DNA from: Escherichia phage Vec13
Direction: 5' to 3' (one strand)
Sequence record: NC_048023.1
Length of the DNA: 39,747 bases
Part shown: positions 1 to 39,747 of the stretch, one piece after another
Layout of the letters: each line of letters begins with the position of its first letter
Position numbering within the stretch: the first letter of the stretch is position 1
Translations under genes and position numbers: made by a program
Notes under the pieces: generated by a model
Seen by the model: only the letters and a program-made list of their open reading frames with translations
Database searches by the model: none
Told to the model about the DNA's origin: nothing

Positions 1-179
1 TCTCACAGTTCAAGAACCTCAAGTCTCCCCATAGGCCCTCTTTAAGTCCAGACCAAAGGCCCTACCCCAGTCTATCATAAGGTTAGACCGATGGTCAAGA
101 CTTCAGGTCAACGATAGGTGGTGACTATGGCTTAGGGAAGGACGATAGGTGGTGACTATAGGTCTGTCTTTGAGTCTCT
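1..179. repeat. Left direct terminal repeat (DTR), identical to 39569..39747
   Basis: First 179 nt are repeated exactly at the right end of the window; T7-like genomes carry 150-250 bp DTRs. Confidence 0.9.
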
Positions 180-200
180 ATCTGTATCAGACCTTGAGTC

Positions 201-245
201 ACTACCTACAGTCTAACTACCTACAGTCTAACTACCTACAGTCAT
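201..245. repeat. Tandem 15-bp repeats (actacctacagtcta x3) just inside left DTR; further cctacagt copies to about 294
   Basis: Direct reading; similar cctacagt/cctacggt motifs recur at 39490..39540 next to the right DTR, analogous to T7 concatemer-junction short repeats. Confidence 0.7.
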
Positions 246-400
246 AGACCATCGGTAATGCCACTACCTACAGTCAGAGACCTACAGTTAATAGACACAA
301 AGGATATAGACTTAAGGTCTAAGACATGTTAGTCAAAGACTATATCCTCTTACACCAAGGGGCCGACGATAGCTTAATCAATATTATTTCAAATTACCTA

Positions 401-429
401 TTGACTACAGGTCCAGACTATGGCTTAAT
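401..429 (+). promoter_or_regulatory. Putative host sigma70 early promoter (TTGACT-N17-cTTAAT with upstream TG)
   Basis: -35 TTGACT at 401-406, extended -10-like TGgCTTAAT at 421-429; position matches T7 A1-A3 early promoter region. Confidence 0.35.
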
Positions 430-710
430 AGCTTCCGTCAACACGACACGGTAACAACCGGATAGTGAAGACGCCTGGTCATCCAGGTTAAGTAGACAGC
501 CTGATAAGTCATACGAACAACAGGCAGATGACAATAAGGTAGTAAGGTCGCTGAGGGCTTCCACTTCAGCAGGTCGGAAAGGTCCTAAAACCTAACGAGA
601 GTCTGACCAGCTCGCCAAGTCTGCCACTGAGGTGGATAACCAGAGGAGGCAACGTGTCGCCCACTGAGGGGCTACAGCTCACGGTTTAGGTTAACAGGCT
701 AAACAAATGC

Positions 711-739
711 TTGACAAGATGTAACGATAAGATGTAAGC
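711..739 (+). promoter_or_regulatory. Putative host sigma70 early promoter (TTGACA with weak -10)
   Basis: Perfect -35 TTGACA at 711-716; candidate -10 TGTAAG/GTAAGC 16-17 nt downstream; location comparable to T7 A3. Confidence 0.3.
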
Positions 740-854
740 TGTACCACATCGAAACAACGGTGATGACCAACACTGAAATGGTCTACCTGAAGTCCTCTGA
801 CTGAAGGGAATGCTCTTTAACAATCTGGATAAACTCTTAATGTGCGCCGATAGC

Positions 855-912
855 GACTAACTACAGGGCCTTTGAGTCTACATCTGAAGGCCCTGACTGA
901 TAGTCACTAACA
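855..912 (+). promoter_or_regulatory. RNase III-like processing hairpin preceding first early gene
   Basis: Perfect 9-bp stem cagggcctt/aaggccctg with flanking conserved ctgactgatagtcactaac element shared with 1207..1260 and 1524..1577; T7 R0.3 lies at the equivalent place. Confidence 0.5.
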
Positions 913-929
913 ACCTAAGAGGATTCATT

Positions 930-1208
930 ATGAGACTGAACAAAGCTACAGCAGAAGCCTTTCGCAAGGAGCTTGAATCAAGATTATTGCGTGGAGTGAA
1001 GGAAGAAGCCGCGCGTTATAAAGAGAACGGTCTAACGTTCAAGCGCTTCATGTGGGATTGCTATCGTGGAGTGGGCCATAAGAAGTCGCAGGATATAATC
1101 ATCAGTAACAATACGGAAGTGCAAGTGGTGGGAGGATATATGACTAACGTGAAGGATTCACACATAGAGACCATGCTCAAGAATGCACTTAAAGATGTAG
1201 CCTACTAG
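930..1208 (+). CDS. Hypothetical early protein (92 aa), upstream of ocr
   Basis: ORF with SD aagagga 7 nt upstream of ATG; preceded by RNase III-like hairpin; no homolog recognised. Confidence 0.6.
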   Translation: MRLNKATAEAFRKELESRLLRGVKEEAARYKENGLTFKRFMWDCYRGVGHKKSQDIIISNNTEVQVVGGYMTNVKDSHIETMLKNALKDVAY

Positions 1209-1260
1209 TGATTAACTACAGGTCGTTAGACTGATAGCGGCCTGACTGATAGTCACTAAC
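1207..1260 (+). promoter_or_regulatory. RNase III-like processing hairpin (stem-bubble-stem)
   Basis: Inner stem caggtcg/cggcctg (one G-U), outer stem gtgatta/tagtcac; near-identical copy at 1524..1577. Confidence 0.5.
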
Positions 1261-1267
1261 TTAACGG

Positions 1268-1522
1268 ATGGACACTATGAAACACTTAAGCACAATCACT
1301 AATCACAATGAAGTATTCGTGAACACTAAAGGTTATGCGTGGATTCAGCTTAAAGAGATGAGAGGAGCGCGTCACCGTGTGGTAGTTCGCAAGGTCTCAA
1401 GCAAGCCGTTCAGCAACTACAGCGTAGATATTGTGCGTATAGACAACGAGACTTACCTGATAGACTCGCAGATAACCGTGAGTCCTACAGCGGGAATCTC
1501 AGCTCCTTATTTCGCTAACTGA
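1268..1522 (+). CDS. Hypothetical early protein (84 aa)
   Basis: ORF between two RNase III-like hairpins in the early region; alternative start at 1277; no homolog recognised. Confidence 0.55.
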   Translation: MDTMKHLSTITNHNEVFVNTKGYAWIQLKEMRGARHRVVVRKVSSKPFSNYSVDIVRIDNETYLIDSQITVSPTAGISAPYFAN

Positions 1523-1523
1523 G

Positions 1524-1577
1524 AGTGATTAACTACAGGTCGTTAGAATCATAGCGGCCTGACTGATAGTCACTAAC
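1524..1577 (+). promoter_or_regulatory. RNase III-like processing hairpin preceding ocr
   Basis: Second copy of the 1207..1260 element (differs at 3 positions in the loop). Confidence 0.5.
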
Positions 1578-1609
1578 ATACACACAAACAACTTTGAGAG
1601 GATATAACT

Positions 1610-1942
1610 ATGGAACGTAACGCTAACGCATACTATGAGCTGCTGGCTGCAACCGTTAAATGCTTCAACGAGCGTATTCAGTACGACGAAATAGCTGAAG
1701 GCGATGATTACCACGATGCGCTGCATGAGGTCGTAGACGGTAAGGTTCCGCACTATTACCACGAGATTTTCACGGTGATGGCTGCTGATGGTATAGACCA
1801 CGAGTTCGAAGACTCTGGGCTGATGCCTGAAACCAAGGACGTAACGCGTATACTACAAGCTCGCATCTATGAGGCGCTTTATAACGATGTGCTTAATAAC
1901 TCGGATGTGGTCTGGTTTGAGGCTGAAGAGGACTGCGAGTGA
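1610..1942 (+). CDS. ocr: Ocr-like DNA-mimic anti-restriction protein (T7 gp0.3 homolog)
   Basis: 110 aa; motif [43 protein letters not shown] closely matches T7 Ocr ([43 protein letters not shown]); acidic; SD gagagga. Confidence 0.9.
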
Positions 1943-2097
1943 TGGTAACTTATGGTCTCTGCCAGCACCATGTAGCCAACGCCCGGATTATGGTCAAGAC
2001 CGGGCAGTTAAACCATGATGCGGCTATGCGTCACCTGAAAGCGGTCTATGAGGGCCGCAAGCGTATACACGACAGTTTGCACGCTGAGGACAAGTAA
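1942..2097 (+). CDS. Small hypothetical early protein (51 aa)
   Basis: ATG overlaps ocr stop (tgATG); SD gagga 8 nt upstream; below ORF-track length cutoff; position analogous to T7 0.4-0.6 small genes. Confidence 0.35.
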   Translation: MVTYGLCQHHVANARIMVKTGQLNHDAAMRHLKAVYEGRKRIHDSLHAEDK

Positions 2098-2098
2098 C

Positions 2099-2224
2099 AT
2101 GTACCAGATAACTTATAGCAGTGAACAGGCGTTCTACGATGGGTGCTACGAGATGATGAAGCGCGGGGCTTGCTACGTGGCTAATCACCATAGCCTGACC
2201 ATAACGCTGACAGGTGGGTACTGA
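2099..2224 (+). CDS. Small hypothetical early protein (41 aa)
   Basis: Starts 1 nt after previous stop; SD gagga upstream; tightly packed. Confidence 0.3.
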   Translation: MYQITYSSEQAFYDGCYEMMKRGACYVANHHSLTITLTGGY

Positions 2225-2227
2225 GTG

Positions 2228-2265
2228 ATAGACGAGAGGTCATCGACTGATAGGTGGCCTCAAAG
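2228..2265 (+). promoter_or_regulatory. RNase III-like hairpin (aggtcat ... gtggcct motif)
   Basis: gaggtca pairs with tggcctc (one G-U); same aggtca/tggcct core as hairpins at 6084, 13374, 36491. Confidence 0.4.
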
Positions 2266-2295
2266 ATTACCACTTGCATTGATAGGAGAATTACT

Positions 2296-2463
2296 ATGAA
2301 ATTTACAATCATCGCACTTTACGTAACCATTATTCTATCTTGGCTTACTGCGGTGCTCACTGATGGTAACGCATTACGACTGGGCTGGCTGGCAGTGGAC
2401 ATTATATTCTCTCCGGTAGGTGTCGTGCGCGGCATCTTGATGTGGATTGGACTGGCGGGATAA
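2296..2463 (+). CDS. Small hydrophobic (2-TM) early membrane protein (55 aa from ATG at 2296)
   Basis: SD ataggag then ATG; sequence MKFTIIALYVTIILSWLTAVL...VGVVRGILMWIGLAG is two predicted TM helices; ORF track gives longer 2254 start without RBS. Confidence 0.55.
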   Translation: MKFTIIALYVTIILSWLTAVLTDGNALRLGWLAVDIIFSPVGVVRGILMWIGLAG

Positions 2464-2466
2464 ACT

Positions 2467-2667
2467 ATGAGTCTTGCACTATTGATAGCCATAGGCTATG
2501 GACTTATCGCCTACGTGCTGGTGAGAGACATCAACAAAGCGCGTAAAGTCTACAAATTAAACTATGTACGTCTGGGCCGCTGGACTGTACGTCAACCTAA
2601 CGGACGATTCATGCGTAACTTAGCGAACGTCTGGGATATAGCAACACTTGGGAGCAAACTACAATGA
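2467..2667 (+). CDS. Small early membrane protein (66 aa, N-terminal TM helix)
   Basis: MSLALLIAIGYGLIAYVLV hydrophobic N-terminus followed by basic tail; starts 4 nt after previous stop. Confidence 0.5.
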   Translation: MSLALLIAIGYGLIAYVLVRDINKARKVYKLNYVRLGRWTVRQPNGRFMRNLANVWDIATLGSKLQ

Positions 2668-2990
2668 ACAAGTCATACGGGATTAATCTGGTACACTCTA
2701 TGGATGCAGACATGCAAATGTTAAGCCTACTGGCTACCGGGTATCGTCACGGAACGTCAAGTCACTCCGCACGTCAACAGCAGGAGAGGGACCGGGTACT
2801 ACAAGCAAGACTCAGGGCGGAGGGCCATAAGTCCGAACTGATGTGTCTGGCGTATGGTGGACGACCAATCACTGACGATGGTAAACTTCTGGTCTCAGGC
2901 TGGAAGGCGATAGACCAACGGTCAACCATCAAGCACACGACTCATGGTGACTTCAGTCATCTTCACGCTAACCCTCTGATATGCAAGTGA
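2664..2990 (+). CDS. Hypothetical early protein (108 aa) occupying the position of T7 gene 0.7
   Basis: ORF overlapping previous stop by 4 nt; no protein kinase motifs; unknown function. Confidence 0.5.
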   Translation: MNKSYGINLVHSMDADMQMLSLLATGYRHGTSSHSARQQQERDRVLQARLRAEGHKSELMCLAYGGRPITDDGKLLVSGWKAIDQRSTIKHTTHGDFSHLHANPLICK

Positions 2991-2995
2991 TTCTG

Positions 2996-3018
2996 ACTTA
3001 ACTATCACTATAGGACTC
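2996..3018 (+). promoter_or_regulatory. Phage RNAP promoter immediately upstream of the RNAP gene
   Basis: cttaACTATCACTATAGGAct matches the 11-copy phage promoter consensus; +1 G at 3013. Confidence 0.7.
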
Positions 3019-3087
3019 AAGGTCTAAGACTCCAAGTGAAAGACCAAAGAGACTTTAAGTGAAAGACTAATAACAAGGACTTTAAGT

Positions 3088-5769
3088 ATGAGCGTCATCT
3101 CTATTGATAAACACGACTTCTCTGATGTGTCGAACGCCATTGAGCCGTTTAACCTGCTGGCCGACCACTACGGGCAAGACCTTGCAGTCAAACAGCTTCA
3201 GCTTGAGCATGAGGCATACACTGAAGGCGAGCGACGTTTCATCAAAAACCTTGAGCGACAGACTGAGCGCGGGGAACTGGCAGACAATCAGGTCGCCAAG
3301 CCTTTGATGCAGACTCTGGTTCCTAAGATTGCGCAAGCCGTCAAGGAGTGGCACGAAGGTCCAGACGGGAAGCTGTCAACCTCACGTCCGAGCGTAGCGT
3401 TCACCATGTTAAGCACTGAAGAGAAGGCCGTCAAGGACCGCTCTCTTCGCATCTCCTGCGAGTCTGCTGCGGTTATCATACTGAAGGTCATCCTCTCCAA
3501 GCTGGTCAAGCCTGAAGGTATACCGATTACACCGATGGCCTCCGCGATAGGTCGCACACTTGAGGATGAAATCCGATTCGGTCGCATTCGTGACAAGGAG
3601 AAGGAGCACTTCAAGAAGGCGATAGCTGATAACCTGAACAAGAGAGCCGGGGCATCATACAAGAAAGCCTACATGCAAGCGGTCGAGACATCCATGCTGG
3701 AGCAAGGCCAACTAGAAGATGCGTGGGGAACTTGGAGTCCGACCGAGGCTGTCCACGTTGGAATCAAGATGCTGGAGATTGTCATACAGTCAACACAACT
3801 GGTCGAGCTTAAGCGTTACGGTGCTGGCAATGCAGCGGCTGACGTTGAGATGGTCCACCTGTCAGACTTCTGGGTCAAGAAGATGGCACAACGCGGCTTC
3901 AGCCTTGCGGGTATCGCTCCAGTCTACCAACCTTGCGTAGTTCCACCTAAGCCGTGGACTGGTGTCGTAGGCGGTGGGTACTGGGCCAAAGGTCGCAGAC
4001 CATTACCACTGATTCGCTTAGGGTCTAAGTCTGCGGTGGCACGTTACGAAGACGTGTATATGCCTGAAGTATATGACGCTGTTAACATCATCCAGAATAC
4101 ACCTTGGAAAGTAAACAAGAAGGTTCTTGACGTGGTGAACATGGTCGAGAAGTTGAACAACACGCCTATTGATGACATCCCTCAGATGGAGCCACTGAAG
4201 CCTGAAGACTATGCGGGTGAGACTGAAGAGGAACTCAAGGCATGGAAGAAGGCTGCTGCTGGTATCTACCGCCGAGAGAAGGCCCGGCAGTCACGTAGAT
4301 TGTCACTGAGCTTTATCGTTAACCAAGCGAACAAGTTCTCTCAGTTCAAGGCCATCTGGTTCCCGTACAACATGGACTGGCGCGGTCGCGTCTACGCTGT
4401 GCCGATGTTCAACCCTCAGGGTAACGACATGCAAAAGGGTCTCCTGACTCTGGCAGTCGGTAAGCCTATTGGTGCTGATGGTTTCAAATGGCTGAAGGTC
4501 CACGGTGCAAACTGTGCGGGTATTGATAAAGTAACCTTCGAGGAGCGCATCAAGTGGGTGGAAGATAACCACGACAACATCATGGCTACCGCTAAGGCAC
4601 CGATGGACAGCATTGAGTGGTGGGGGAAGTTAGACTCTCCTTTCTGCTTCCTTGCGTTCTGCTTCGAGTATGCTGGCGTGATGCACCACGGATTGTCTTA
4701 CTCCTGCTCGCTGCCGATAGCTTTCGATGGGTCCTGCTCTGGGATTCAGCACTTCAGCGCTATGCTTCGTGACCACATCGGTGGACATGCAGTAAACCTG
4801 ACGCCTTCCGGTAAGGTCCAAGACATCTACCGCATCGTGTCTGACCGCATTGAGGAAGAGCTTAAAGTCCTGCTGGTTAACGGCACGGACAACGAGATGG
4901 TAACTCACGAGGACAAGAAAACTGGTGAGATTACCGAGCGTCTCAAGCTGGGGACACGAGAGCTGGCCCGTCAGTGGCTGACCTACGGTATGTCACGAAA
5001 GGTCACTAAGCGCTCAGTCATGACTCTGGCCTACGGGTCGAAAGAGTACGGATTCGCAGACCAAGTATACGAGGACATCGTGATGCCAGCGATTGACTCA
5101 GGGTCTGGCGCTATGTTCACTGAACCAAGCCAAGCATCTCGCTTCATGGCTAAGATGATTTGGGAAGCTGTGAGTGTGACCGTAGTTGCTGCGGTTGACG
5201 CGATGAAATGGCTTCAGGGTGCTGCCAAGCTGCTGGCGGCTGAAGTGAAGGACAAGAAGACGGGTGAAATCCTGAAGCCTTGCCTTCCGGTACACTGGGT
5301 CACACCTGATGGGTTCCCGGTCTGGCAGGAATACCGCAAGAAGGATACCACTCGTCTGAATCTGATGTTCTTAGGGTCATTCAACCTTCAGCCTACCGTC
5401 AACAAAGGCACGAAGAAAGAGCTGGATAAGCACAAGCAGGAGTCAGGCATTAGCCCGAACTTCGTCCACTCACAAGATGGTAGCCACCTCCGCAAGACTG
5501 TAGTCCATACTCACCGCAAGTATGGCGTGATGTCGTTCGCAGTGATTCACGATAGCTTCGGGACCATCCCGGCTGACGCTGAGTATCTGTTCCGTGGGGT
5601 CCGTGAGACTATGGTCGAGACCTACCGCGACAACGATGTGCTGCTTGACTTCTACGAGCAGTTTGAATACCAGCTTCACGAGAGCCAGCGCGATAAGTTG
5701 CCAGAGCTTCCGAAGAAAGGTAAACTGAATATCGAAGACATCTTGTCTTCAGACTTTGCATTCGCTTAA
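3088..5769 (+). CDS. Single-subunit DNA-directed RNA polymerase (T7 gp1 homolog)
   Basis: 893 aa; long colinear identity with T7 RNAP incl. FPYNMDWRGRVYAV, LPIAFDGSCSGIQHFSAMLRD, VHSQDGSHLRKTV, HDSFGT, C-terminal FAFA. Confidence 0.98.
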   Translation: MSVISIDKHDFSDVSNAIEPFNLLADHYGQDLAVKQLQLEHEAYTEGERRFIKNLERQTERGELADNQVAKPLMQTLVPKIAQAVKEWHEGPDGKLSTSRPSVAFTMLSTEEKAVKDRSLRISCESAAVIILKVILSKLVKPEGIPITPMASAIGRTLEDEIRFGRIRDKEKEHFKKAIADNLNKRAGASYKKAYMQAVETSMLEQGQLEDAWGTWSPTEAVHVGIKMLEIVIQSTQLVELKRYGAGNAAADVEMVHLSDFWVKKMAQRGFSLAGIAPVYQPCVVPPKPWTGVVGGGYWAKGRRPLPLIRLGSKSAVARYEDVYMPEVYDAVNIIQNTPWKVNKKVLDVVNMVEKLNNTPIDDIPQMEPLKPEDYAGETEEELKAWKKAAAGIYRREKARQSRRLSLSFIVNQANKFSQFKAIWFPYNMDWRGRVYAVPMFNPQGNDMQKGLLTLAVGKPIGADGFKWLKVHGANCAGIDKVTFEERIKWVEDNHDNIMATAKAPMDSIEWWGKLDSPFCFLAFCFEYAGVMHHGLSYSCSLPIAFDGSCSGIQHFSAMLRDHIGGHAVNLTPSGKVQDIYRIVSDRIEEELKVLLVNGTDNEMVTHEDKKTGEITERLKLGTRELARQWLTYGMSRKVTKRSVMTLAYGSKEYGFADQVYEDIVMPAIDSGSGAMFTEPSQASRFMAKMIWEAVSVTVVAAVDAMKWLQGAAKLLAAEVKDKKTGEILKPCLPVHWVTPDGFPVWQEYRKKDTTRLNLMFLGSFNLQPTVNKGTKKELDKHKQESGISPNFVHSQDGSHLRKTVVHTHRKYGVMSFAVIHDSFGTIPADAEYLFRGVRETMVETYRDNDVLLDFYEQFEYQLHESQRDKLPELPKKGKLNIEDILSSDFAFA

Positions 5770-6063: not shown

Positions 6064-6086
6064 AAGAGGTTAACCTAAACTATCAC
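6064..6086 (+). promoter_or_regulatory. Phage RNAP promoter (phi1.1-like; candidate primary replication origin region)
   Basis: cctaaACTATCACTATAGGatt; in T7 the phi1.1A/B promoters with adjacent AT-rich DNA form the primary origin. Confidence 0.8.
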
Positions 6087-6128
6087 TATAGGATTAGACT
6101 CAAGGTCATGACTCAAAGTCGTGGCCTT
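6084..6128 (+). promoter_or_regulatory. RNase III-like hairpin (conserved tagactcaaggtcat ... gtggccttcatgatta)
   Basis: One of three near-identical elements (also 13374..13418, 36491..36538); aaggtca pairs with tggcctt with a G-U. Confidence 0.55.
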
Positions 6129-6169
6129 CATGATTAACCCTAAATAAACACTACTGGAGATTTAACCGT

Positions 6170-7678: not shown

Positions 7679-7720
7679 CAACCCAGTGGTCTTAGGACTG
7701 CTGGGTTTCTTTGCTTTGTG
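7679..7720 (+). terminator. Putative early (host RNAP) terminator, TE-like
   Basis: Stem acccag/ctgggt followed by T-rich tttctttgctttgtg directly after ligase gene, where T7 TE lies. Confidence 0.45.
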
Positions 7721-8392: not shown

Positions 8393-8609
8393 AGAACTTA
8401 AAGCTGTAGGGGTGAAGCGTAGAGCGCTCAGTTTTTACCGAGCATACAAGGCGCTACGTAAGGGTATGTTAGCGTTCTCATTAGGACACAGTGAGTATTG
8501 TGACTATGACCTCCTACCGTTTGCTTATATGAAGACTCCTAGTATGATTATTAGGGTAGAGGAGTATGACCATTCTGACGACTGTGTAATGGTGAACCGA
8601 TATGCTTAA
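8382..8609 (+). CDS. Hypothetical protein (about 75 aa; gene 1.8 position)
   Basis: ORF track 8346..8609; internal ATG at 8382 has SD aagga and avoids long overlap with gp1.7. Confidence 0.4.
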   Translation: MTHEELKAVGVKRRALSFYRAYKALRKGMLAFSLGHSEYCDYDLLPFAYMKTPSMIIRVEEYDHSDDCVMVNRYA

Positions 8610-8696: not shown

Positions 8697-8855
8697 ATGA
8701 CTGACGTAGAAAAGAAATACATCGTGGAGCTTGAGGGTCGCGTTCAGTCATTCGAGGTTCCGGTGTACGCAAAGTCTCTTGAAGAGGCTACCCTGAAGTC
8801 CCAAGAGTATGAGGACGCTGGGTTTGTGGTCGGACGGATTCGTCCTGAGACCTAA
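8697..8855 (+). CDS. gp2-like inhibitor of host RNA polymerase
   Basis: [15 protein letters not shown]...[10 protein letters not shown] resembles T7 gp2 HSFEVPIYAETLDEA...AGFEVTRVRP; start at internal ATG 8697 with SD aaggag (track ORF 8619..8855). Confidence 0.7.
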
Positions 8856-10063: not shown

Positions 10064-10518
10064 TGACTACCTGTAAAGACCTTGAAGTTGGAACACGTTA
10101 CAGATTCTCAAAGAACACCCTGTTGAATAACCCCAGCTTCACTGATGCTGTTTTCGAAAAGCGAGAAGACCATAGCGTAATTGTGGAGAAGGGGTGGCAT
10201 CCTGAGGATTATATCGGTGAGACTACCAGCTGGAATGGTCACGAGACCTACAGTGTAGAAGTTGTTGACCAGCCTCAAGTCCTGCCAGCTTCGAGCGTAC
10301 CTCCTGTGACTGTGAAGCGTGAAGTCCTGACAATCGACAAGATTGGTGTAGGCCAGACGTTCATCGTCCATGGAAAGCCTGAAGAAGTTTACGTGAAGAT
10401 TAGCAACTCACACGTCTTCAACCATAAGCGTCTCCAGATGCACACCACGGACGCACAACGCTTCACCCAGCACCTGAATCTAGTGGTCGTAGAATTGGTG
10501 GTGTACAATGGTAAGTAA
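10063..10518 (+). CDS. Hypothetical protein (151 aa) inserted between endonuclease I and lysozyme
   Basis: ATG overlaps gp3 stop (tgATG) with SD aaggag 8 nt upstream; overlaps lysozyme start; no T7 counterpart at this position. Confidence 0.6.
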   Translation: MTTCKDLEVGTRYRFSKNTLLNNPSFTDAVFEKREDHSVIVEKGWHPEDYIGETTSWNGHETYSVEVVDQPQVLPASSVPPVTVKREVLTIDKIGVGQTFIVHGKPEEVYVKISNSHVFNHKRLQMHTTDAQRFTQHLNLVVVELVVYNGK

Positions 10519-10966
10519 GGTACAGTTCAACCCACGGTCCCGGACTGACGCTATCTTCGTTCACTGTTCGGCTACCAAGCCAGAGATGGACATCGGGGTA
10601 GAGACCATCCGTATGTGGCACAAGCAGCAAGGCTGGCTGGACGTAGGCTACCACTTTATCATCAAGCGCGATGGTACTGTGGAAGAGGGTCGCCCGGTAA
10701 ACGTCGTAGGGTCACACGTTAAGGACTGGAACTCACGGTCTGTAGGCGTCTGCCTTGTAGGTGGAATCGACGCTAAGGGCAAGTTTGAAGCTAACTTCAC
10801 TCCGGACCAGATGAACTCCCTACGCAACAAGCTGGCTGACCTGAAGTCCCTGTATCCTCAGGCAGAAATCAAAGCACATCATGATGTAGCACCAAAGGCG
10901 TGTCCAAGTTTCGACTTACAGCGCTGGCTGTCTACTAATGAGCTGGTCACTTCCGACCACGGTTAA
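10508..10966 (+). CDS. N-acetylmuramoyl-L-alanine amidase / T7 lysozyme (gp3.5 homolog)
   Basis: 152 aa; TDAIFVHCSATKP, QGWLDVGYHFIIKRDGTVEEGR, VGVCLVGGID, HHDVAPKACPSFDL, NELVTSDHG match T7 lysozyme. Confidence 0.95.
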   Translation: MVSKVQFNPRSRTDAIFVHCSATKPEMDIGVETIRMWHKQQGWLDVGYHFIIKRDGTVEEGRPVNVVGSHVKDWNSRSVGVCLVGGIDAKGKFEANFTPDQMNSLRNKLADLKSLYPQAEIKAHHDVAPKACPSFDLQRWLSTNELVTSDHG

Positions 10967-10990: not shown

Positions 10991-11206
10991 ATGATTAAAC
11001 TTATCGAATTTCTAGGTCGTCTGGTGGTGCGTGGTTATCGTCGTGCTGCGGTACTGGAACGAAAGGTAGAAAAGAAGACTGCTGATGGCGCGGCTGATGC
11101 GGCTGCTCTGGCTGACAAGCTGACCATCGCGTCACTGGAAGCTGGCATGAAGGCTCGTCAGGCTGATACCAAAGCTGACCAGTTGGCTCAGTTCTTCAAA
11201 GACTAA
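10991..11206 (+). CDS. Hypothetical protein (71 aa, Ala-rich, predicted helical)
   Basis: Strong SD aaaggag; position of T7 gene 3.8 but no HNH motifs. Confidence 0.5.
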   Translation: MIKLIEFLGRLVVRGYRRAAVLERKVEKKTADGAADAAALADKLTIASLEAGMKARQADTKADQLAQFFKD

Positions 11207-11223
11207 ACTATCACCTTAGGGAT
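11201..11223 (+). promoter_or_regulatory. Possible weak phage promoter variant
   Basis: gactaaACTATCACctTAGGGa; two mismatches at -5/-4 relative to consensus; T7 has phi3.8 at this location. Confidence 0.3.
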
Positions 11224-11274
11224 GGGACCATGAGTCCTGTCCCTTTGTTCGCATTTGTGACTAAGGAGTGACCG

Positions 11275-39568: not shown

Positions 39569-39747
39569 TCTCACAGTTCAAGAACCTCAAGTCTCCCCAT
39601 AGGCCCTCTTTAAGTCCAGACCAAAGGCCCTACCCCAGTCTATCATAAGGTTAGACCGATGGTCAAGACTTCAGGTCAACGATAGGTGGTGACTATGGCT
39701 TAGGGAAGGACGATAGGTGGTGACTATAGGTCTGTCTTTGAGTCTCT
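39569..39747. repeat. Right direct terminal repeat (DTR), identical to 1..179
   Basis: Exact 179-nt repeat of the window start. Confidence 0.9.

Follow-up and report, generated by a model that had tools for sequence, protein, structure and literature searches.

A phage RNA polymerase gene under its cognate promoter was reportedly engineered by Dubendorff and Studier in 1991 as an 'autogene', in which a T7 promoter drives the cloned T7 gene 1. The self-amplifying polymerase design has also been explored artificially in T7 models and in experiments with permuted genomes. Among natural phages, Pseudomonas phage LUZ100 has a promoter, phi1, directly upstream of its polymerase gene, the start of which was mapped by ONT-cappable-seq (mSystems 2023, PMC10134795). 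The authors propose a positive feedback, in which read-through by the host enzyme starts the loop and the phage polymerase amplifies it (PMC10134795). Autoregulation has also been proposed for Vibrio phage phiA318, on the basis of a promoter predicted ahead of its kinase and polymerase genes (BMC Genomics 2014, PMC4099482).

In the present work, we examine the region directly upstream of the polymerase gene in Escherichia phage Vec13. The whole stretch of DNA analysed, called the window here, comprises 39,747 bases and is a complete Kayfunavirus genome (K1F-like, T7 family, Studiervirinae). We describe a promoter match at this location, how well it is conserved and how it co-varies with the specificity of the polymerase, where it lies and which way it faces, and how far the leader that follows it is constrained, and we consider what these observations imply for the control of polymerase synthesis.

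The promoter as such has been noticed before. A 2026 description of the Kayfunavirus Sparklingdew places a promoter repeat at the 3' terminus of the gene before the polymerase gene, and a promoter is annotated at the gene 1 site in the GenBank records of EcoDS1 (NC_011042), PE3-1 (KJ748011), CR44b (NC_023576) and CR8 (HG818824). In EcoDS1, which is identical to the window over 2990 to 3100, it is called 'promoter phi' (2244-2266) and lies directly before gene 1 at 2336. In CR8 a 'predicted promoter' (3356-3378) occupies the same position, but it is written in CR8's own promoter dialect (see below). These records give a feature line only, without evidence or functional discussion, and the Ro45lw record annotates other promoters and omits the one at gene 1. 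K1F polymerase/promoter pairs have been reported to be functional in engineered systems, the gene 1 site not being among those, and the Kayfunavirus/K1F literature searched contained neither transcript or primer-extension results nor in vitro work on this site. One candidate source of Kayfunavirus transcript mapping, vB_Eco_K1B4, was rejected, as this phage is a Kagunavirus.

The Vec13 genome has direct terminal repeats at both ends. Its gene 1 (3088..5769, + strand) encodes a single-subunit RNA polymerase of 893 aa that is 64% identical to T7 RNAP and has N748 and N756 (T7 numbering) in the specificity loop. The RefSeq re-annotations (NC_007456, NC_011042 and others) call this T7-type polymerase 'N4-like RNA polymerase', which is a misleading name. 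Over the gene 1 region, Escherichia phage CLB_P1 is 96.5% identical to the window, and altogether 211 phage records match the region. The upstream gene is a gp0.38 homologue (2664..2990, + strand), with its stop codon at 2988-2990, and putative early host-type promoters are located at 401..747 on the + strand, homologous or analogous to the 'host RNAP promoter' sites of EcoDS1. Downstream of gene 1 come the next phage promoter (start 6091) and then an R1.1-like RNase III-type hairpin (together 6076..6135, + strand; hairpin z −2.4), followed by a TE-like intrinsic terminator 3' of the ligase gene (7680..7707, + strand), which is annotated in EcoDS1 and marks the end of the host-transcribed early region. 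The host polymerase inhibitor gp2 is encoded at 8697-8852 and the gp3.5 lysozyme at 10508-10963. No homologue of the gp0.7 kinase or of the CR8 0.7-like gene was found in window 1-3087, in which the longest early ORF has 110 aa. CR8 retains its 0.7-like gene, yet it also has a promoter before gene 1.

The element before gene 1 is a predicted K1F-type phage RNA polymerase promoter covering positions −17..+6 (ACTTAACTATCACTATAGGACTC). It is found at 2996..3018, on the same (+) strand as the genes, between the gp0.38 stop codon, which ends 5 nt before it, and the gene 1 ATG. The string TTAACTATCACTATAGGA at 2998-3015 on the + strand matches the consensus at 18/18 positions; allowing up to 3 mismatches, it occurs at 10 sites in the genome, all of them on the + strand, compared with 0.03 expected from shuffles. 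A position weight matrix was constructed from the nine other promoters, with the gene 1 site left out, and both strands were scored with it. The gene 1 promoter obtains 32.5 bits and the nine others 34.2-39.2 bits, and the next best site anywhere on either strand has 23.6 bits, the genome background having a mean of −51 and an sd of 12. The initial annotation had placed a phage promoter some 75 nt before the RNAP start, and this is borne out by the calculations. The transcription start that it expected at about 3013 also agrees with the present assignment, in which G3013 is the +1 of the element and a leader of 75 nt separates it from the gene 1 ATG at 3088.

This promoter is the leftmost phage promoter in the genome, and it is single, without a tandem partner. 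It has the CACTATAGG core, as do the other promoters of the genome, and its GGA initiation sequence matches those of the early/middle promoters. Because GGACTC is a GGA-type initiation sequence, and not of the GGGA type used by the late promoters, the output of the gene 1 promoter may be modest. A host sigma-70 promoter at the same site, comparable to promoter C of T7, was also considered, but a scan of 2900-3090 for −35/−10 elements with 16-18 nt spacing gave no consensus match, and this option was rejected.

Some other promoter-like sequences in the window can be mentioned here. The 23.6-bit site, ACTAAACTATCACCTTAGGGATG at 11202-11224 (start 11219), represents an eleventh, degenerate promoter with CT for TA at −4/−3; it lies ahead of the primase/helicase gene, and EcoDS1 annotates a 'phi' there (11107-11129). 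In the terminal repeat (140-175; 39705-39747), GGTGGTGACTATAGGTCTG matches part of the promoter core TGACTATAGG, with a poor promoter score, and tandem CTACCTACAGTC-type repeats are found just inside the left terminal repeat (200-260), as annotated in CR8.

The gene 1 promoter is carried by 20/20 close IMG/VR relatives and by K1F, EcoDS1 and CLB_P1 in GenBank. A wider survey included 80 loci around gene 1. Comparison with related genomes, put forward in the initial annotation as a way to check the promoter, finds it 75-81 nt upstream of gene 1 in each of the 18 Kayfunavirus loci and, in CR8, at a distance of 102 nt, and the 116-bp promoter-leader segment is present in 219 GenBank phage records, with an identity of at least 99% in 106 of these. 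Over 17 distinct main-clade sequences, the nucleotide diversity of the promoter is 0.005. The corresponding values are 0.012 for the first and second codon positions of gene 1, and 0.12 (gene 1) and 0.28 (gp0.38) for third codon positions.

A further line of evidence comes from genomes in which the polymerase has a different specificity. D748/R756 is the combination found in the T3 polymerase, and T3 promoters use ACCCT. In Ro103C3lw, the polymerase of which is 88.5% identical and has D748/R756 (T7 numbering) in the loop, 12/12 promoters read AAACCCTCACTATAGG, including one located 75 nt before gene 1. In the Citrobacter phage CR8 (genus Caroctavirus), with a polymerase that is 79% identical and has K748 and a rearranged specificity loop, 5/5 promoters of the locus read AAGGAAGGTACACTATAGG, including the one 102 nt before gene 1. 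Three dialects of the specificity region (about −12 to −8) can thus be distinguished, ACTAT, ACCCT and GGTAC-type, and in each case the gene 1 site follows the set of its own genome. Because the site keeps its position while the dialect switches with the polymerase specificity, these comparisons indicate that it is used as a promoter. As to the gene start in CR8, its record (L110) places it at 3460 (ATGACCTTAAGAGGAACAGCTTTAATG...), but the ATG at 3475 is favoured by the alignment of the polymerases and by the ribosome-binding site AAGAGGAA.

Judged by these comparisons, the gene 1 site is a real promoter, kept by selection, for the RNA polymerase of the phage itself. To the option that it is a chance or relic match without function we give next to no probability. 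An 18/18 consensus match stands where shuffles give 0.03 sites, it is conserved in 219 records and switches dialect with the polymerase, and its diversity is more than 20-fold lower than that of synonymous sites, such that the comparative data already contradict this option. It is important to point out that a conserved promoter shows use, not that raising the polymerase level is its selected role.

One lineage deviates in the promoter sequence. In the Ro45lw lineage (L027, start 2417; L018-L023, L037-L039, L045), the gene 1 promoter is CACTAAAGG, with A at −2, unlike all other promoters of Ro45lw, which have T at −2 and the core CACTATAGG. The A at −2 may make the promoter weaker, or it may reflect a lineage-specific tuning of its strength. 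The leader of this lineage has been rebuilt with insertions, and the GACT-type units are retained in it.

We now turn our attention to the more distant relatives. In the approximately 60 T7-, T3- and K11/KP32-like loci that were surveyed, no phage promoter was found within 400 nt upstream of gene 1. Most of the T7- and K11-like loci have a phiOL-like promoter 2-4 kb upstream of gene 1, and in T7 itself phiOL is situated at nt 405 and directed rightward, ahead of all the early genes, gene 1 among them. In Kayfunavirus and CR8, on the other hand, no phiOL-like site was detected, the best score in window 1-2990 being 1.1 bits. The sequence just before gene 1 is also different. The 0.7-to-1 intergenic region of T7 contains the E. 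coli minor promoter C (3113) and a stable R1 hairpin but no phage promoter, and in the 110 nt before gene 1 of the T7-, T3-, Berlin- and K11-like loci (L048-L109) an R1-type hairpin is conserved, for example TATCTTCAAGGTC...TGGCCTTTATAGATAAAC. This hairpin is absent from the Kayfunavirus + Caroctavirus clade. Among the loci surveyed, the proximal promoter, the lack of a phiOL-like site and the replacement of the RNase III-type hairpin are specific to this clade.

The initial annotation had contrasted the locus with T7, where it took gene 1 to be transcribed by the host RNAP only and the first phage promoters to lie downstream of gene 1. The contrast holds insofar as the proximal promoter is clade-specific, but the first statement is too strong, because phiOL has the same direction and points toward gene 1. 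Like the Vec13 element, phiOL is a phage promoter that lies before gene 1 and is directed rightward, and the phage polymerase could read through into the gene in T7 as well. The difference is that phiOL is located 2.8 kb upstream, at the genome end.

Considering that Kayfunavirus and CR8 have no phiOL-like site to the left of gene 1, and that in the majority of the T7- and K11-like loci a promoter is found 2-4 kb before the gene, with none close to it, the promoter might be viewed as a displaced equivalent of phiOL that serves genome-level tasks, such as left-end late transcription or concatemer processing, and not polymerase dosage. However, transcripts that start at 3013 do not cover the left 3 kb, and the promoter could not take over any task of phiOL for which the left end has to be transcribed. 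The 75-102 nt coupling to the ribosome-binding region of gene 1 is conserved across diverged lineages, which points to expression of gene 1, and we find this scenario improbable.

The left end of the genome was inspected in this connection. The 12-mer AAGGTCTAAGAC has only two copies in the genome, one at 3019, at the beginning of the leader, and one at 314 in AT-rich left-end non-coding sequence, where a weak promoter-like string, TTAATAGACACAAAGGA, stands before it (region 283-352). This region may be the relic of a phiOL-type cassette. A decayed phiOL at this end (~290-330) was nevertheless rejected as a candidate, since the sequence shares AAGGTCTAAGAC with the leader but obtains less than 1.1 bits as a promoter.

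Among the T3-like loci, one contig of 36,051 bp (L069, IMGVR_UViG_2706796511_000001) has the terminase gene and then gene 1 within ~1.6 kb, without the usual early genes 0.3 to 0.7, which points to a natural deletion or to an error in assembly. Its promoters at 8432 and 9384 (617 and 1569 nt before gene 1) were rejected as gene 1 promoters, as they are the end promoters of a contig that lacks the early genes.

Next, we consider the leader of gene 1 (5' UTR; 3013..3087, + strand), which is 75 nt long, weakly structured and contains GACTnnAAG-type repeats. Its GC content is 34-36%, compared with 50% for the genome (lowest 1.7% of 70-nt windows), and purines make up 66% of its bases. Copies of AAGTGAAAGAC start at 3034 and 3057, and copies of GACTTTAAGT start at 3051 and 3078. 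The initial annotation was right that these repeats exist, although two of its four starts were off by one and one was off by two. They are part of a larger pattern, in which a 21-nt imperfect direct repeat has its first copy (AGACTCCAAGTGAAAGACCAA) at 3027..3047 on the + strand, holding AAGTGAAAGAC at 3034-3044, and its second copy (AGACTTTAAGTGAAAGACTAA) at 3050..3070 on the same strand, holding GACTTTAAGT at 3051-3060 and AAGTGAAAGAC at 3057-3067. The two copies are 86% identical and belong to a looser series of GACTnnAAG-type units spaced by ~14 nt. An exact 11-nt repeat within 75 nt is obtained in 0.3% of dinucleotide-preserving shuffles.

The leader ends in the predicted translation initiation region AAGGACTTTAAGTATG (3075..3090, + strand), consisting of the SD-like AAGGA at 3075-3079, an 8-nt spacer and the ATG at 3088, with the spacer falling in the second copy of GACTTTAAGT (3078-3087). 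This ribosome-binding end of the leader constitutes the most conserved 20 nt of the region, and GGACTTTAAGTATG, found in the start region of gene 1, also occurs without any change at the start of T7 gene 1.1. We also considered CTTTAAG or ACTTTAAG as a genome-wide ribosome-binding motif, but this was rejected, the other copies being intragenic or in the terminal repeat. For the leader as a whole, the diversity in the main clade is 0.014, which is approximately the nonsynonymous level and 9-20x below the synonymous one. Because the diversity of the whole leader is as low as that of nonsynonymous sites, the comparison argues that the leader sequence matters.

In the initial annotation it was suggested that the repeats could be regulatory. 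The strong purifying selection on the leader speaks for this suggestion indirectly, but searches for a structure, for covariation or for a known RNA family that would support it were negative. A concrete version would be that the leader is an RNase III processing site like R1 of T7, the repeats forming the arms of the hairpin. The two copies of GACTTTAAGT are indeed quasi-palindromic and paired with each other in the minimum-energy fold, and the leader starts with ACTCAAGGTC, which is the same 5' arm as in the R1.1-like hairpin at 6098. However, the leader fold is no more stable than those of shuffles (z +0.6), compared with z-values of −1.6 to −2.7 for T7 R1, T7 R1.1 (−2.7) and the R1.1-like hairpin of the window. 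In a consensus fold of seven leaders from three Kayfunavirus lineages, compensatory changes were found for 0/18 predicted pairs, and an Rfam search of 2800-3300 with E up to 1 returned no match. Furthermore, the AAGGTC...GGCCTT hairpin, clear in the other Studiervirinae groups included here, is missing in the clade. Because of the z of +0.6 (true R1.1-like hairpins being at about −2.4 to −2.7), the lack of compensatory changes and the empty Rfam search, the RNase III site, which we regard as very improbable, was rejected, as was a riboswitch-like reading of the leader, no significant or covarying structure being present.

A better counterpart of the leader is found elsewhere in T7. The primary replication origin of T7 is at phi1.1A/phi1.1B and the AT-rich segment associated with them, where the transcript made by the polymerase primes DNA synthesis. 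The Vec13 leader aligns to the T7 leader between phi1.1B and gene 1.1 with a z of 7.9, 0/2000 shuffles being as good, and with a z of 4.4 when the shared last 13 nt are omitted. In both phages, a GGA-initiating promoter is followed by an AT-rich leader (84 nt in T7 vs 75 nt here) with CTTAAG/CTTTAAG-type repeats and the end GGACTTTAAGTATG. At the position of phi1.1B in the window, just after the R1.1-like hairpin (~6100-6130), there is only a decayed promoter-like relic, CCTAAATAAACACTACTGGAGAT at 6139-6161, with 1.9 bits. Because the leaders align, the GGACTTTAAGTATG end is common to both and the phi1.1B position holds only this relic, the unit of promoter and leader ahead of gene 1 seems to be a relative of the phi1.1B cassette in T7. 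There are also clear differences. The T7 element is downstream of gene 1, serves gene 1.1 and is in tandem with phi1.1A, and its origin function was established by experiment, while an origin at the Vec13 element is hypothetical.

This relationship brings up the option that the promoter and the AT-rich leader act mainly as a replication origin, the transcription of gene 1 being a by-product, which would be compatible with feedback. In addition to the alignment, also without the last 13 nt, and the low GC content, such a function would be in line with the conservation of the whole leader at the nonsynonymous level, as expected of a signal acting at the DNA level, and with the 1.9-bit relic at the phi1.1B position. 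However, the promoter is single and not tandem, the leader of phi6.5 is equally AT-rich, and the similarity resides mostly in the ribosome-binding end, which points to translation, and we consider it clearly unlikely that the locus is mainly an origin.

In a broader form, the leader, of which 69 nt are considered here, might be a cis-acting control element in its own right, either the origin of K1F-like phages, fused to the polymerase gene, or a platform for a protein or the ribosome. This is suggested by the constraint on the leader, by its GACT units recurring every ~14 nt and by its homology to the origin leader of T7 phi1.1B, although we hold it to be rather unlikely. With an origin, the onset of replication would be coupled to the self-amplification of the polymerase, and with a platform, binding of the protein or ribosome would set the gain of a natural polymerase autogene. 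As a control element of this kind, the cassette of promoter and leader would have been swapped in by the clade for the ancestral RNase III site and phiOL.

The scenario that we favor is that the promoter provides positive feedback on the synthesis of the polymerase. In a simple scan, no terminator-like site was found between 3013 and the gene 1 ATG at 3088, and none was found on the + strand between the early host-type promoters and gene 1. Because the promoter faces gene 1 with no terminator-like site between the two, a positive-feedback arrangement is the natural reading of the locus. For the initial supply, a homologue of a host promoter annotated in EcoDS1 is present at 401-437 and a similar TTGACA-type site at 711-747, both of which were missed by the simple sigma-70 scan. 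Since no + strand terminator-like site precedes gene 1, host RNA polymerase starting from the early promoters near 400-750 would read through and produce the first gene 1 message.

In the next step, the newly made phage polymerase would use G3013 as its start site and copy first gene 1, which encodes it, and then genes 1.1 to 1.3. The AT-rich and weakly structured 75-nt leader, with the conserved ribosome-binding region at its end, would favor translation of this message. In T7, gp2 inhibits the host polymerase and the lysozyme gp3.5 inhibits the phage polymerase. The loop would amplify polymerase synthesis and free it from the host enzyme once gp2 acts on the latter, and by analogy with T7 the loop would be damped at a later stage by the gp3.5 lysozyme as polymerase inhibitor. 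We thus infer initiation in vivo at this site, feedback and its damping. Taken as a whole, the account of a working promoter with positive feedback of the phage polymerase on its own gene is probably correct, and feedback on polymerase synthesis is the most likely function of the promoter.

If the loop operates, K1F-like phages would have a natural self-amplifying gene for the central enzyme of their transcription, and in this clade, where the gp0.7 kinase is missing, the supply of polymerase would not depend on the host enzyme. There is also a practical side to the arrangement. When a K1F-type gene 1 is cloned together with its upstream region for orthogonal expression, the cognate promoter is carried along, which would create an unintended autogene. 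Moreover, the ACTAT, ACCCT and GGTAC-type dialects offer three natural matched sets of polymerase and promoters in closely related backbones.

It is finally useful to compare the locus with the systems mentioned at the outset. The T7 autogene likewise has a polymerase gene under its cognate promoter, self-amplifying after a small initial input, but it is an artificial plasmid construct, whereas the Vec13 arrangement is natural and conserved across the clade. LUZ100 shares with Vec13 a phage-specific promoter directly before its own polymerase gene. It is, however, a distant and possibly temperate phage, in which a MarR-like repressor and a terminator have been proposed as a gate (PMC10134795). 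Neither a repressor nor a terminator gate is present in the window, which is a typical lytic T7-like genome, and the transcription start in Vec13 is a predicted one. In phiA318 the promoter precedes the kinase gene as well, while Vec13 has no kinase gene and its promoter adjoins gene 1. The existence of the promoter was thus already known, and the idea of feedback has already been published for LUZ100 and phiA318. What the present analysis adds is the evidence from co-variation, the contrast with the T7-like phages, the constraint on the leader, and the likeness of this leader to that of phi1.1B in T7.
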